A stretch of 64,000 nucleotides of DNA from the NCBI GenBank assembly GCA_965116475.1, contig OZ220691.1, positions 849,093-913,092 of the forward strand. Reading direction: 5' to 3'. Shown here in pieces: positions 35,477 to 50,406 of this stretch. The stretch comes from Gemmatimonadota bacterium. GTDB taxonomy: Bacteria > Gemmatimonadota > Gemmatimonadetes > Palauibacterales > Palauibacteraceae. The notes below the pieces were generated by a model that made no database searches, had not been told where the DNA came from, and saw nothing but the letters and a program-made list of their open reading frames with translations. Positions within the stretch are counted from its first letter, which is position 1; every line of letters begins with the position of its first letter. The position numbers were made by a program, and so were the translations under genes.

Positions 35477-37693
35477 ATGAACCGCCGCCCGTCCCGTTCC
35501 GCCGTTTCGCCGAAGGCTCGCATCGCGGCGCTGGCTCGCGATGACAAGTGGTTCCTGGGCGGGTTGGACGGCGTCGTATGGGCGCCGCCGTTCCCGCGGT
35601 GGCTCCACCGGCCGGGGTTCTGGGATCCGGCTCACCTGCTGCAGCATGAAGTCGGCCCCGGGTTCTCGGTGGCCCTCGTAGCCTCGGACGGGCGAGAGAG
35701 CCCGCTCCGTCGAGCGGCGCCCGGTCGGGGCGGTGACGGGCCGGCGCCGGACAGGTGGCGGCCCGGACGGCTGGTCGCCATGTGGGCCGATGAGCGAGGC
35801 GTCCTCGCCGAAGAGCGCCGCCAGGTGCTGCCGGGCGGCATCCTGGAATCGGCCTGGCACCTCCCCCGCGACTTCGAGGGACACCTCGTCGGCTTCACCG
35901 CGCAACCGGCGGATGCGACGGACGGGGTGGCGTTCACGGCGGACGGCGTGGGCTGGACGCGGACCGTCTCGGACCGGCGCGGGCAGGAACTCGTCCTGCG
36001 CGTGGAACTCACGGGTTCCGTCCCGCCGGCGTGGCGGCGCATCGCACCGTCCGAGGGTCGCGTCGCGCCCGCATGGGTCCAGTCGCCCTTCGCGGAGGGT
36101 GTCGGAGGGGGTGCGGAGGACGCCGCGCGCCGTTCCGGGTGGATCTGGATCGCCGTCGCGCTTCCGATGCCGTCGATCAACGGCGGCTCAGCGGCGTTCC
36201 GGCTGACTCTCCGCCTTCCGGGCGCGGAACCCCGACGCCCGGATCCGGCGGCCTCGGCCTGGGAGTCCTTCTTCGGCGGTTTCCCGCATTTCGAGTGCGG
36301 CGACCTTTATCTCGACCGCACGTTCGACTACCGCATCTACGGGCTCGGCCTGAACCGCATCGAAGGTCCATGGGGCCCGGTGCGGCGCCCCGCCATCGCC
36401 GAGGGTCCGGAGTACTTTCACGTCCCGGTCGCCTACAGCGCGCAGTGCCACATGATGGAAATGCGCTGGCGGGAGGGCGGGCGCGAAGCCTGGGGCTCGC
36501 TCCTGAATTTCGTAGACAACCAGAAGCCCGACGGCTCCTTCCACGGGCGCCTCTACCCCGAGCGCCTCGAGGGAACCGACTTCTACCACGCCAACTGGGG
36601 CGACGCGCTGCTCGCGGTCGACGACGTGCATCCGGATCCGGCGGCGCTGGCCCGCTGCTACGAGGGGCTGTCGCGCTACGCCCGCTGGCTGACGGCGGAG
36701 CGCGACCCCGAGGCGTCGGGGATGTTCACCGTCACGAACCACTTCGAGACGGGACAGGAGTACATGTCGCGCTACATGGCCGTGGACGGGGAGGCGGACG
36801 TGGCGGGGTGGCGTCCGCGGCTCCGCCTCAAGGGGATCGACGTCACGGTGTACGCGCACCAGCTGTTCCGCGCCCTCGCCTCCGTGGCGCGCCGCCTCGA
36901 GCGCCCCGGCGACGAGGTCGAATGGCGCGGGCTCGAGGATCGCTGCAGGAGGGCGATCGACGAGCGCATGTGGTCGCCGGAGGCCCGGCTGTTCACGGAC
37001 GTGGACGGGCGCACCGGCGAGCGGACCGGCGTGAAGGCGGCGGTGGGATTCTACCCGCTGCTCACCGGAGGGGTAGAGGGCGCGCGGCTCGATGCCCTGC
37101 TCGATCACCTCGAGGATCCGGGGACCTTCGGCACGCGCTTCCCCCTGCCTTCGTCCAGCGTAGACGATCCGCGATTCTCGGCGGAGGGCATCTGGCGCGG
37201 GAAGCGCCGTAACTGCCCGTGGAACGGACGCGCCTGGCCGATGACGACGAGCCACGTGATCGAAGGGCTCCTGCGCTGCTGGCGCGGCGGGAACGCGCGG
37301 GGGAACGCGCGGGCCGGCGCGCTGGCGGCCGACATGCTCCACCGCTTCGCGCGCATGCTGTTCACCGATGGCGATCCCTCGCGCCCCAACTGCTTCGAGC
37401 ACTACAACCCGCACACGGGGCGGGCGTGCCACTACCGGGGGATTGACGACTACCAGCACTCGTGGATCCTCGACCTGCTGGCGCGCGGATTCGGCGGGCT
37501 TCACGTAGACGCGTCGGGCGTCGAAGTGCGGCCGCTGCCGAACGGTCCCGCGCGCGTGTCGCTGGGACCGGTGATCGCGCGGGGGCGCACCGTGTCCATC
37601 GAGGTGGCGCCCGAACGGGTGCGCGTCGAGGTGGACGGCGAGCGGCTCGACGGGCCGCGCGCCGAAGGCTTGCGGGTGCCGTGGGACTCGTGA
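35477..37693 (+). CDS. six-hairpin (alpha/alpha)6 glycoside hydrolase, clan GH-G (GH63 / MGH1-like)
   Basis: Start at MNRRPS (ATG 35477). HFETGQEYMSRY, NCPWNGRAWPMTTSHV and FEHYNPHTG resemble GH63/GH37 catalytic-domain signatures. Confidence 0.75.
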   Translation: MNRRPSRSAVSPKARIAALARDDKWFLGGLDGVVWAPPFPRWLHRPGFWDPAHLLQHEVGPGFSVALVASDGRESPLRRAAPGRGGDGPAPDRWRPGRLVAMWADERGVLAEERRQVLPGGILESAWHLPRDFEGHLVGFTAQPADATDGVAFTADGVGWTRTVSDRRGQELVLRVELTGSVPPAWRRIAPSEGRVAPAWVQSPFAEGVGGGAEDAARRSGWIWIAVALPMPSINGGSAAFRLTLRLPGAEPRRPDPAASAWESFFGGFPHFECGDLYLDRTFDYRIYGLGLNRIEGPWGPVRRPAIAEGPEYFHVPVAYSAQCHMMEMRWREGGREAWGSLLNFVDNQKPDGSFHGRLYPERLEGTDFYHANWGDALLAVDDVHPDPAALARCYEGLSRYARWLTAERDPEASGMFTVTNHFETGQEYMSRYMAVDGEADVAGWRPRLRLKGIDVTVYAHQLFRALASVARRLERPGDEVEWRGLEDRCRRAIDERMWSPEARLFTDVDGRTGERTGVKAAVGFYPLLTGGVEGARLDALLDHLEDPGTFGTRFPLPSSSVDDPRFSAEGIWRGKRRNCPWNGRAWPMTTSHVIEGLLRCWRGGNARGNARAGALAADMLHRFARMLFTDGDPSRPNCFEHYNPHTGRACHYRGIDDYQHSWILDLLARGFGGLHVDASGVEVRPLPNGPARVSLGPVIARGRTVSIEVAPERVRVEVDGERLDGPRAEGLRVPWDS

Positions 37694-38823
37694 CGCGCGC
37701 GCCGCAGGGCGTGGAGCTGCGCGGCGTCGAGAAGCGATACGGCGAGATCGCGGCCGTCCGGGCGCTGGATCTGGAGGTCCGGCCGGGAGAGCTGGCGGTG
37801 CTGGTGGGGCCCTCGGGGTGCGGGAAGAGCACGCTGCTGCGCCTTATCGCCGGGCTCGTCGAACCCACCTCGGGAGAGGTGTGGATCGGGGGACGGCGCG
37901 TGGACGATGTCGAGCCGGGCGCTCGCGACGTGGCCATGGTGTTCCAGAGCTACGCGCTCTACCCGCATATGACCGTGGCCGCGAATCTGGGCTTCGGCCT
38001 GCGTGTGCGGGGCACGCCGCGCGACGAGCTCGAGCGGCGGGTGGAGGAGACCGCCGCCACGCTCGGCCTCTCCGACCTGCTGTCGCGGAGGCCGGGCGAG
38101 CTGTCCGGCGGACAGCGTCAGCGGGTGGCCCTGGGACGCGCCATGGTGCGCGATCCCGGCGTATTCCTCTTCGACGAACCGCTCTCGAACCTGGACGCGG
38201 AGCTGCGGCTGCGGACGCGCGACGAGATCGCGGCTCTGCACCGGCGCCTCGGCACGACGATGATCTTCGTGACGCACGACCAGGTGGAAGCGCTGTCCCT
38301 CGGCCAGCGGGTCGCGGTGATGGACCGTGGCCGACTCCAGCAGGTGGGTACGCCGGATGAGGTCTACCGCCGACCCGCCAACCTGTTTGTGGCGGGCTTC
38401 GTGGGGTCGCCGCCCATCAACCGCATCCCTCTGTCGCGCGACGAACGAGGGTGCCTCGCGGGCGGTCCGTTCACCCTGCGCGCGCCGTCGTACCTCGACC
38501 GGGCGACGCTGGGCGTGCGGCCGGAGGACCTCGCCATAGTCCCCGCGGGGGCGCAGGATTCAAGCGAGGCGGGCGACGCCACCGAAGCGGGCGACTTCCG
38601 GGCCGTCGTGCTCCGCGTGGAGGCGCTGGGCAGCGAGCAGCGCCTGCACCTGGACGGCCCCGGCGACGCGGCCTGGGTGGCGCGCGCGGGCCCCGTCCTT
38701 CGGATCGCCCCCGGGGACCGGGTGAACGCGTCGGTCGCGTGGGAGCGCAGCCACCTGTTCGGTCCGGATGGCCGCCGCGAGGAGGCCGCGCCGCGACCGA
38801 TGGACCGGGCGGGCCCCCGATGA
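37690..38823 (+). CDS. carbohydrate ABC transporter ATP-binding protein (MalK/UgpC-like)
   Basis: Walker A GPSGCGKST, signature LSGGQRQR, Walker B LFDEPLS and the C-terminal TOBE-like domain. GTG start overlaps the GH stop (GTGA). Confidence 0.9.
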   Translation: MTRAPQGVELRGVEKRYGEIAAVRALDLEVRPGELAVLVGPSGCGKSTLLRLIAGLVEPTSGEVWIGGRRVDDVEPGARDVAMVFQSYALYPHMTVAANLGFGLRVRGTPRDELERRVEETAATLGLSDLLSRRPGELSGGQRQRVALGRAMVRDPGVFLFDEPLSNLDAELRLRTRDEIAALHRRLGTTMIFVTHDQVEALSLGQRVAVMDRGRLQQVGTPDEVYRRPANLFVAGFVGSPPINRIPLSRDERGCLAGGPFTLRAPSYLDRATLGVRPEDLAIVPAGAQDSSEAGDATEAGDFRAVVLRVEALGSEQRLHLDGPGDAAWVARAGPVLRIAPGDRVNASVAWERSHLFGPDGRREEAAPRPMDRAGPR

Positions 38824-50200: not shown

Positions 50201-50406
50201 TCGACCCTGACGACCGGCTGGTGCGGTTCCTGTTCGACGCGGCGGCGGAAAACCCCGATGGCGTACCCCGGGCCTTCGAGACCGTCACCATCGCCTCGCT
50301 GCGCGCCCGCATCGATTCGCTCGGCGCCGCCCCGTCCCCGATCGCGACGATCGAGCAAGACCTCCTGCGCCGGGCCCTCTCCGCCGCCGCCCGCCTGGAA
50401 CGCTAG
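47293..50406 (+). CDS. large lipoprotein with N-terminal beta-rich domain (possibly DUF5107-like) + C-terminal TPR repeats
   Basis: Start at MKHTGSG, 8 nt after the hicA stop. Lipobox AVVSCDG. The C-terminal 500 aa contains multiple TPR-like helical pairs (ALAAEPWNREALLGLGALALR... and similar). 1037 aa. Confidence 0.7.
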   Translation: MKHTGSGVTTMQGSGSSWKSGNQQHRLPYAAILCAALAVVSCDGPGPRARISEEVRVLDTYPFSDPNPVPVLATDRRLYPYHTFEGYAATSEPREWKVVTMENDLIEVFVLPEVGGKVWGAVVKATGHEFIYRNEVMKFRDIALRGPWTSGGLEFNFGVIGHTPATATPVDYLLRENADGSVSTIVGATDLPSRTPWRVEIRLPPDRAAFETRVLWYNPTPLEQPYYNWMTAAAFAQDDLELFVPGNAYLEHSGRARPWPEDEEGRFLPLYRNNAFGGHKSYHVVGALNDFFGGYYHDEDYGWGHWAPHEEMPGRKMWLWALSRAGGIWEDLLTDTDGQYVEFQAGRLHAQYAPGADRNPISQAGFDPLSASRWTEWWFPLEGTGGLTDASPHGAMHVERVSDGLRVVVQAFGSGVDTVAVWSDGEQIAARAVAFEALDPLTVEFDVAPGRPWRVSLPGLRLEACSRPGATGLAGVCGFGGEPSVSRPFGTNAEAWEALPETDRLVFEARELVRGRRHADARTRYDRALAAEPWNREALLGLGALALRSARYEEGLAHARRALQLDTYDPEANFLAGNLYLALGRRADALDSFGWAARSVEFRAAARTRLAELALEAGDMAETRRHAALALDHDRVSIPAREALAIAARLEGDEAGAARVQAELLELDPLNHFVLAERYLAARAAGSVSAEAADGAEAARLTASMRSEYPGQTLLELAVGYANRGLDADAARLLELADEVGGGPVAAAWLAFLTQDPDLLRAGADPAFAFPYRPETLPVLRWAAAEDAHWGWRYLLGLNLWALDRDAEAAEVLGTLGDEPDYGPAYAARAHLTEAMGGDPSPDFLRAVAVDPGSRLLHISLIRHLQETGRWAQAREASGRGTGLFPDDFNLALLHVRGLIQAGEYREANGILAGTRVLPSENSGEAHRLYEFAHVGAALDELEAGNRPAARRHLEAALLWPESLGQGRPFDPDDRLVRFLFDAAAENPDGVPRAFETVTIASLRARIDSLGAAPSPIATIEQDLLRRALSAAARLER

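Follow-up and report, generated by a model that had tools for sequence, protein, structure and literature searches.

The 64,000-nucleotide stretch of DNA analysed here, hereafter the window, comes from a Gemmatimonadota bacterium (contig OZ220691.1, positions 849,093 to 913,092 of the forward strand). At positions 35477-50406 it carries ten plus-strand open reading frames (ORFs) in one unbroken run, which were delimited by GC3 sliding-frame analysis, translations and Pfam/NCBIfam scans. With moderate confidence we regard this run as a carbohydrate-utilisation operon of a Candidatus Palauibacter genome, i.e., of an uncultured marine and sponge-associated lineage, that was assembled in layers. 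Mostly it is an ordinary ABC-plus-glycosidase sugar operon with a CUT1 importer and putatively cytoplasmic glycosidases; what sets it apart is a single protein that joins a nucleotidyltransferase (NT) to a galactokinase-type kinase. In our estimate there is about an even chance that a glycoside containing a galacto-configured sugar is imported, cleaved in the cytoplasm and converted within one protein to a nucleoside diphosphate sugar (NDP-sugar) without GalT.

The genes that underlie this reading are, in order:

35477..37693, plus strand: GH63A, divergent GH63-like hydrolase, 738 aa (PF22422 MGH1-like_GH, 4e-44)
37690..38823, plus strand: ABC ATPase of the UgpC/MalK type, 377 aa (ABC_tran 2e-35; C-terminal TOBE_2 3e-9)
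38820..40139, plus strand: substrate-binding protein (SBP), 439 aa (SBP_bac_8 9e-30, SBP_bac_1 6e-26; lipobox ...LGAVGC)
40136..41917, plus strand: permease 1, MalF/UgpA-like, 593 aa (BPD_transp_1 at residues 389-581)
41910..42731, plus strand: permease 2, MalG/UgpE-like, 273 aa (BPD_transp_1 2e-20; UgpE 1.5e-42)
42736..44583, plus strand: GH63B hydrolase, 615 aa (PF22422 1e-44; PF03200 GH63 57.6 bits; Trehalase 60.6 bits)
44594..46807, plus strand: NT plus GHMP kinase fusion, 737 aa (Pfam; TIGR00131 galactokinase 256.5 bits, cut-off 226.65)
47293..50406, plus strand: DUF5107 plus TPR protein, 1037 aa (PF17128, 413 bits, 6e-124)

Two small toxin-antitoxin genes between the last two complete the ten. 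The first five genes are linked by overlaps (GTGA at 37690, ATGA at 38820, GTGA at 40136 and 8 nt at 41910-41917), and the other junctions have gaps of 4, 10, 34, 6 and 7 nt, in this order; the genes are presumably co-transcribed. An earlier note on this DNA had described a co-directional run with GTGA, ATGA and 8-nt overlaps, which was exact in these points; the run comprises ten ORFs, not the seven or eight it had counted. For GH63B there is an alternative GTG start at 42733. Raw ORF lists are noisy because the G+C content of the window is about 71%.

The nucleotidyltransferase-galactokinase fusion

The fusion consists of an NT half (about residues 1-329), a linker (about 330-356) and a GHMP domain of the galactokinase type (about 357-737). 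It is encoded by a single uninterrupted ORF in the window and in two related genomes (L082, Ca. P. irciniicola, and L143), and also in P0241 and P0242. As the ORF is intact in three independent assemblies, an assembly artefact could be ruled out. Pfam returned NTP_transf_3/NTP_transferase and galactokinase-type GHMP domains (PF10509, 59.4 bits), and the kinase half, whose full-length identity to E. coli GalK is 33%, clears the cut-off of the TIGR00131 galactokinase equivalog. In L. lactis GalK the residues that contact the sugar or act in catalysis are R36, E42, D45, D183 and Y233. All five have equivalents in the kinase half when it is aligned with 1pie: an Arg, a Glu and an Asp that bind galactose, a second Asp for catalysis, and a Tyr at the position where human GalNAc kinase has Phe. 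In the PDB the NT half matches 3pnn, an uncharacterised nucleotidyltransferase, and the kinase half matches GALK2 at 193 bits and GalK at 162 bits. From its sequence the fusion is predicted to phosphorylate a galacto-configured sugar at C1, with D-galactose as the most likely substrate and N-acetylgalactosamine (GalNAc) or L-arabinose as possible ones.

The fused architecture is rare, with only two other cluster representatives among the 150 best matches out of 1.84 billion. P0294 (658 aa) joins a classical NTP_transferase domain (RmlA/GalU-like) to a galactokinase and is a separate fusion; therefore the NT-GalK fusion arose at least twice. The same layout, with an N-terminal NT and a C-terminal GHMP anomeric kinase in one polypeptide, is found in Bacteroides fragilis FKP, which we take to be an L-fucokinase/GDP-fucose pyrophosphorylase leading from sugar to sugar-1-phosphate to NDP-sugar, and in Akkermansia Amuc_1591. 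The latter is described in PMC13313206. In contrast to FKP, the kinase in the window is of the galactokinase type and its NT belongs to the 3pnn/MobA-like group; no fucokinase-type Pfam family was returned for the fusion in the Pfam scan. A further difference is that the fusion has its counterpart in a triad of genes in related genomes. The window fusion is thus an FKP-type architecture of independent origin.

This triad emerged from 80 genome loci that were retrieved with the fusion as query and compared over neighbourhoods of 10 kb. In other Gemmatimonadota the NT and GalK halves are separate genes, and NT lies at most 10 kb from GalK in 17 of 20 GalK loci. A Na+/solute symporter (SSF) gene, conserved at 65-96%, adjoins NT in 21 loci, and the best solved relative of the symporter is the Na+/galactose symporter vSGLT of Vibrio (1e-31). 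A GalE-like gene adjoins in L017 (positions 5995-11152), which exemplifies the GalE-NT-SSF(vSGLT-like)-GalK arrangement conserved in Gemmatimonadota; a Flavobacteriaceae genome has the order GalK-SSF-NT. None of these arrangements (L001-L046 and L069) has an E. coli-type GalT within 10 kb. E. coli-type GalT was found by tblastn within 10 kb in none of 27 Gemmatimonadota GalK or NT loci versus 13 of 53 loci from other phyla. The window itself holds no SSF, GalT, GalE or GalM homologue in its 64 kb (GalT by tblastn with the E. coli query). The most economical account is a loss of the symporter gene that had separated NT from GalK, with fusion of the genes on either side of it. A fusion without a symporter gene fits a sugar that is supplied inside the cell and not imported as a monosaccharide.

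The Leloir gal operon (GalM-GalK-GalT-GalE) likewise has a galactokinase step that feeds the UDP-hexose pool, and the GalE-like gene beside the NT-SSF-GalK triad adds to this likeness in the relatives. The difference from the Leloir operon is the pyrophosphorylase-type NT in the place of GalT, as in an Isselbacher or USP-like route. GalK without GalT has been reported for Akkermansia and Algoriphagus, and the substitution of NT for GalT bears on these reports.

Two GH63-type hydrolases and a CUT1 importer

In both hydrolases the (alpha/alpha)6-barrel catalytic domain is recognised by family models, with about 320 aa ahead of the barrel in GH63A and about 250 aa in GH63B; GH63A is built of an N-terminal beta-sandwich, the barrel and a C-terminal beta domain. 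Their clan assignment rests on Pfam models plus PDB comparisons. The earlier note had described two six-hairpin hydrolases of the clan GH-G type, and Pfam supports this: the MGH1-like model matches both, GH63B is above threshold for the GH63 (PF03200, cut-off 22.4 bits) and Trehalase models as well, GH63A is above threshold for the broad MGH1-like model only, and Pfam places neither protein outside the clan. YgjK and TTHA0978 are the nearest solved relatives. GH63B matches TTHA0978/Tt8MGH at 2e-16 and YgjK at 8e-12, and a profile of 46 GH63A homologues gave YgjK as its best match (1.5e-8). No solved structure is more than 20% identical to GH63A.

With YgjK and TTHA0978, GH63B has in common a WESGxD motif in the acid region and an (R/Q)EN(F/Y) base motif. 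Its WESGQDD aligns with WESGMDN of TTHA0978, in a low-scoring segment that is not significant alone, and its RENFD aligns with the base motif QENYN of YgjK, whose general base we take to be E727. The base Glu is conserved in both window hydrolases, E641 of GH63A aligning with that of GH63B. For the acid of GH63A the alignment is ambiguous, and the candidates, invariant in the 46 homologues, are E428 (ETGQE) or D437/D441 (VDGEAD). Catalytic roles and positions in GH63, including the general-acid Asp in the A'-region (YgjK D501), are those given in PMC7263609.

The presence of an N-terminal domain ahead of the barrel in both window hydrolases is a further likeness to YgjK, whereas identity to YgjK or TTHA0978 does not exceed 20%. 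By eye no N-terminal signal sequence was seen in GH63A or GH63B, and for this reason both are predicted to be cytoplasmic, unlike YgjK, which is presumably periplasmic. GH63A is fixed in its place beside an ABC importer, for which YgjK and Tt8MGH have no described parallel. Between the two window proteins identity is about 26% over the barrel, and judged by sequence they are distant paralogues. The phrase "two paralogous hydrolases" in the earlier note is correct as to homology and overstated as to closeness, since 26% identity rules out close paralogy.

One cluster holds all the parts expected of a CUT1 importer: an ATPase with a TOBE domain, a family-1 SBP and a pair of BPD_transp_1 permeases. 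The same parts make up MalEFGK2 and UgpBAEC, from which the window differs by the gene order K-E-F-G; the MalEFGK-type transporter named before is thus a CUT1-type importer with another order of its genes. The ATPase scored 410 bits against the UgpC equivalog NF008653 (cut-off 432), and residues 303-589 of permease 1 match UgpA (NCBIfam). As all NCBIfam equivalogs of the importer stay under their cut-offs, annotation rules do not make it a maltose or glycerol-3-phosphate importer. The SBP is probably a family-1 carbohydrate-binding lipoprotein, its lipobox having been read by eye. Its nearest solved relatives are oligosaccharide binders (AbnE, 4e-23; Lmo0181; trehalose/maltose-binding protein). 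These matches are too distant to name the ligand.

At its N-terminus permease 1 is extended by about 300 aa (40136-41050), with one transmembrane segment followed by a probable periplasmic domain. This distinguishes the larger window permease from MalF, which carries an internal P2 loop. The extension contains no known domain, and a Pfam scan of the N-terminal 305 aa with E up to 10 found nothing. The extension is kept in close relatives and is divergent or missing in distant ones, where tblastn coverage begins between residues 146 and 305 (L099-L128).

Conservation of the locus and its later additions

Synteny was compared over about 140 related loci overall. A metagenome scan with the GH63A alignment yielded 53 loci with 83% to 32% identity, onto which the window proteins were mapped. 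Where the identity of GH63A is 45% or more and the contig runs on for 1.2 kb or longer, 23 of 25 loci have the ABC ATPase gene immediately behind GH63A, and the genes of the SBP and both permeases come next as far as the contigs extend. In loci with less than 45% identity no ATPase gene adjoins GH63A, and in three of nine such loci it lies within 4 kb. In L124 another six-hairpin hydrolase gene separates GH63A from the ATPase. The order GH63A-ABC is also seen in L085 and L086, and the importer genes stay together as one block in L082, L085, L086, L089-L128 and L143.

Of 15 long loci, 5 have a GH63B orthologue downstream, and in four of these five (L094, L097, L101, L110) a GH116-like (DUF608) gene encoding about 900 aa, which is missing from the window, lies between permease 2 and GH63B. 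The pair of GH116-like gene and GH63B occurs without a transporter in L081, L083 and L084. In L086 two proteins without a significant Pfam match take the place of GH63B. The Longimicrobiales chromosome L085 (13473-22361) carries an inversion, flanked by two IS21 copies, that disrupts the locus by breaking the SBP (residue 266) and GH63B (residue 161). These comparisons indicate that the old stable unit, as judged from sequence, is GH63A plus importer, with GH63B as a frequent add-on. As the extra six-hairpin hydrolases come and go, the system looks more like one for processing oligosaccharides than one for the breakdown of a simple compatible solute.

The whole locus is conserved in L082, at 82-97% identity, and L143 has the same gene order, with a fusion of 77% identity that overlaps each of its neighbours by 4 nt. 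The fusion stands directly behind GH63B in the window and in both of these loci. The repeated gene order rules out a chance arrangement. In L082 (2686-4976) the GH63A orthologue is called as two ORFs of 350 and 423 aa, which points to a frameshift, be it in a pseudogene or through a sequencing error. For GH63A, GH63B and the DUF5107 protein alike, close homologues carry the names of Candidatus Palauibacter (irciniicola, soopunensis, polyketidifaciens) or of Gemmatimonadota metagenome-assembled genomes, and several of the close relatives are sponge symbionts, judged from their names. We found nothing in the literature on DUF5107, BDI_1685, GH63 with galactokinase, or this Palauibacterales locus.

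The last protein of the run had been called a TPR lipoprotein. It is chiefly a DUF5107 protein, with a DUF5107 domain at about residues 78-380, a beta domain and a long TPR superhelix at about residues 495-1037. The match to PF17128 is near full length (profile positions 6-309 of 310), and the protein is homologous to BDI_1685 of Parabacteroides distasonis (PDB 5cd6, an unpublished structure; DUF5107 plus BDI_1685-like_C) at 1.7e-24. The DUF5107 domain is common to both; the window protein is nearly twice as long and has a TPR superhelix of about 540 aa. 5cd6 was deposited under the name TPR-domain containing protein, and in L041 the family of its C-terminal domain shows weak matches to TPR. 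From the sequence ...LAVVSC, a lipobox conserved in L082, the protein is probably a lipoprotein. An AlphaFold 2 (AF2) model from a 54-sequence alignment was confident in the TPR part and had a pLDDT below 50 in the DUF5107 part, and therefore the lowest E-values in Foldseek belonged to TPR superhelices. A mutarotase-like role was probed by comparing the DUF5107 alignment, which is shallow (Neff 1.9), with E. coli GalM in hhalign, and no signal was obtained; a relaxed Pfam scan of the DUF5107 region with E up to 10 gave nothing new.

A short DUF5107 protein is also found near GalK, SSF and NT in L011 and within a GalK-GH123-SSF-NT cluster in L041. This link of DUF5107 to galacto-sugar metabolism is suggestive only. 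The earlier view of the lipoprotein as a component of the system finds little backing, as orthologues at 64-69% identity are solitary. The L041 cluster (5224-13399, Gemmatimonadales) comprises GalK, the short DUF5107 plus BDI_1685-like_C protein, GH123, SSF and NT. GH123 is a beta-N-acetylgalactosaminidase family, which hints at scavenging of GalNAc or galactosides linked to DUF5107.

The remaining features concern an insertion and the region upstream:

46842..47051, plus strand: hicB-like antitoxin gene, 69 aa (UPF0150 32.4 bits, cut-off 27.3)
47058..47285, plus strand: hicA toxin gene, 75 aa, GTG start (PF07927 HicA_toxin 3e-21, 75.6 bits)
46772..47385, no strand: inserted hicBA cassette, approximate extent from the breakpoints of homology with L082 and L143
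35316..35476, no strand: intergenic region of 161 nt between the divergent 240-aa lipoprotein gene and GH63A, presumed promoter region

The two small genes, in the order hicB then hicA, have the characteristics of a HicAB type II toxin-antitoxin system. HicB scores just below the cut-off of HicB_lk_antitox (24.9 versus 27 bits) and above that of UPF0150; an ATG at 46809 is a possible alternative start, and its GC content is 62%. Homology with L082 and L143 ends near 46772 and restarts near 47385, and the cassette is absent from both. The cassette (about 0.6 kb) has a GC content of 63.5% versus 72% for the locus and supplies the last 12 or so codons of the fusion and about the first 30 of the lipoprotein. 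We conclude that hicBA is a later, selfish insertion specific to the window; no convincing target-site duplications were found around it. The start of the lipoprotein had been placed 8 nt after hicA, which is correct (hicA ends at 47285, ATG at 47293). The cassette brings a sigma-70-like site at 46781-46810, a point that bears on the co-regulation of the locus. Another HicB-like gene with a small ORF, not closely related to the window hicB, lies just upstream of the GH116-like/GH63B pair in L083 (6849-7158).

Apart from the promoter-like site before hicB, the locus scan gave no sigma-70 or terminator consensus, and no Rfam family matched between 34 and 51 kb. The promoter role of 35316-35476, where neither a sigma-70 consensus nor an Rfam family was matched, is presumed from position. 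Divergent from GH63A, on the minus strand at 34593-35315, lies the gene of a 240-aa acidic lipoprotein that matches no Pfam family. It has no helix-turn-helix domain, which agrees with the earlier statement that the locus lacks a regulator gene. The gene, which may be part of the locus, keeps its position beside GH63A in L082, L089, L090 and L143.

The flanking genes are unrelated. Upstream there is an LRR/metalloprotease gene and then the divergent 240-aa gene; downstream, an Atg22-like MFS gene converges on the locus and overlaps its end with the stop codon. The upstream region (27645-34558) encodes a BNR/Sortilin-repeat protein (1103 aa) and the LRR plus metalloprotease protein (867 aa), "eukaryotic-like" repeat proteins that are typical of host-associated bacteria. 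In L082 a giant cadherin-repeat protein stands downstream in place of the arrangement in the window.

The proposed route and competing explanations

The scheme of an importer, two hydrolases and a sugar-1-kinase/pyrophosphorylase, as laid out in the earlier note, fits both gene content and synteny. In the route that we propose, the binding lipoprotein would capture a small glycoside or oligosaccharide in the periplasm and the MalFGK-like transporter would bring it into the cell, where GH63A and GH63B (GH63-clan, inverting-type) would cleave it in the cytoplasm. The fusion would then phosphorylate the released galacto-configured monosaccharide at C1 and turn the sugar-1-phosphate into an NDP-sugar, with whichever nucleotide the NT may use, so that GalT is bypassed. 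The DUF5107-TPR lipoprotein would be an exported accessory protein, loosely linked to galacto-sugar clusters.

Several observations weigh against this route. Only in three close Palauibacter genomes do the fusion and the DUF5107 gene adjoin the GH63/ABC module, and none of the 53 metagenome loci shows either of them, including L091 (75% identity), which extends 2.7 kb beyond GH63B. A 56%-identical fusion is solitary among defence-like genes in L142, and L087 and L088 each have a DUF5107-TPR orthologue (64-69% identity) by itself. As to the glycosidic bond, no enzyme of the locus has a characterised close relative. The characterised GH63 enzymes release glucose or mannose and not galactose; therefore galactose would either be the sugar on the aglycone side (Glc-alpha-1,2-Gal is an example) or be released through a new specificity. 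Both AF2 models are of low confidence in the key domains. The best PDB score of the kinase goes to human GalNAc kinase, and the GH123 gene of L041 keeps GalNAc as a candidate sugar. Finally, the GalT comparison used an E. coli-type query in 10-kb neighbourhoods only, leaving whole genomes and class II GalT unsearched.

It is possible, if somewhat unlikely, that the locus is a mosaic in which GH63A-ABC-GH63B forms an alpha-glucoside operon for kojibiose-, nigerose- or trehalose-like substrates, while the fusion and the DUF5107-TPR gene are independent neighbours brought together by genome compaction; the fusion would in that case serve general galactose salvage or activation for cell-envelope glycan synthesis. 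The solitary copies in L142, L087 and L088 fit such a mosaic, as do the GH63A-ABC(-GH63B) loci without fusion (L085, L086, L091-L104 and others), the alpha-glucosidase or trehalase type of the nearest solved relatives of both hydrolases, and the insertion of a toxin-antitoxin cassette between fusion and DUF5107 gene without obvious harm. It accounts less well for the spacing of 4 to 10 nt or overlaps of 4 nt that link GH63B, fusion and DUF5107 gene in three genomes, or for a fusion without the symporter gene that elsewhere separates NT and GalK. Moreover, the adjacency of GalK and a GH63A-like gene recurs independently in L136 (45-1837), a short metagenome contig with a GalK gene directly upstream of a 35%-identical GH63A homologue, and DUF5107 members recur in GalK/NT clusters.

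Other sugars were considered for the route as a whole. A GalNAc-1-kinase with a UDP-GalNAc pyrophosphorylase, comparable to human GALK2 plus AGX1, could scavenge GalNAc from glycoconjugates of sponge or sediment, which we consider improbable. The PDB scores of the kinase (196 bits for human GalNAc kinase 2a2c against 163 for L. lactis GalK), the position of GH123 between DUF5107 and SSF-NT in L041 and the sponge symbionts among the close relatives are in its favour. Yet the kinase keeps the galactokinase Tyr where GALK2 has Phe and passes the TIGR00131 cut-off, the symporters in the related clusters come closest to the Na+/galactose transporter vSGLT, and the locus contains no deacetylase or deaminase gene. 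The eukaryote-type motif GEHIDY also occurs in yeast and plant galactokinases and counts against GalNAc, too. More improbable still is the import and recycling of a glucosyl- or mannosylglycerate solute with re-activation of the hexose by the fusion, the substrate put forward in the earlier note. The Pfam domain shared by both hydrolases is named after the mannosylglycerate hydrolase MGH1, and the habitats of the organism are saline (PMC10469786). By the sequence tests applied, the proposal fails because the glucosylglycerate-hydrolase equivalog NF047898 gave only 39.3 bits for GH63A and 37.2 bits for GH63B against a cut-off of 550, and because these proteins of 738 and 615 aa have large N-terminal domains that are absent from the solved single-domain chains of glucosyl- and mannosylglycerate hydrolases (about 389-445 residues). 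In addition, the kinase is of the galactokinase type and not a gluco- or manno-kinase, no glycerate kinase is present in the locus, and related loci add large GH116-like or GDE-like six-hairpin hydrolases, which suggests an oligosaccharide.

Going beyond the galacto-glycoside route, we tentatively put forward an idea that is unlikely in its full extent, namely that the 3pnn-like NT is a galactose-1-phosphate nucleotidyltransferase replacing GalT, with the fusion as a "Rosetta stone", and that GH63A represents a new GH63-like family acting on galactose-containing alpha-glycosides. The fusion of NT and GalK argues that the NT family takes the product of the kinase. An example of a GH63A substrate would be the Glc-alpha-1,2-Gal of host collagen in a sponge-associated Palauibacter. 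If this is true, Gemmatimonadota and at least one Flavobacteriaceae genome would have a GalT-independent galactose route, and the NT would be a candidate for the missing step in bacteria that have GalK and lack GalT. GH63A would stand for a well-conserved, uncharacterised GH63-like family whose fixed ABC partner makes discovery of the substrate tractable, and the natural galactokinase/pyrophosphorylase fusion would offer a one-protein catalyst for NDP-galactose analogues.

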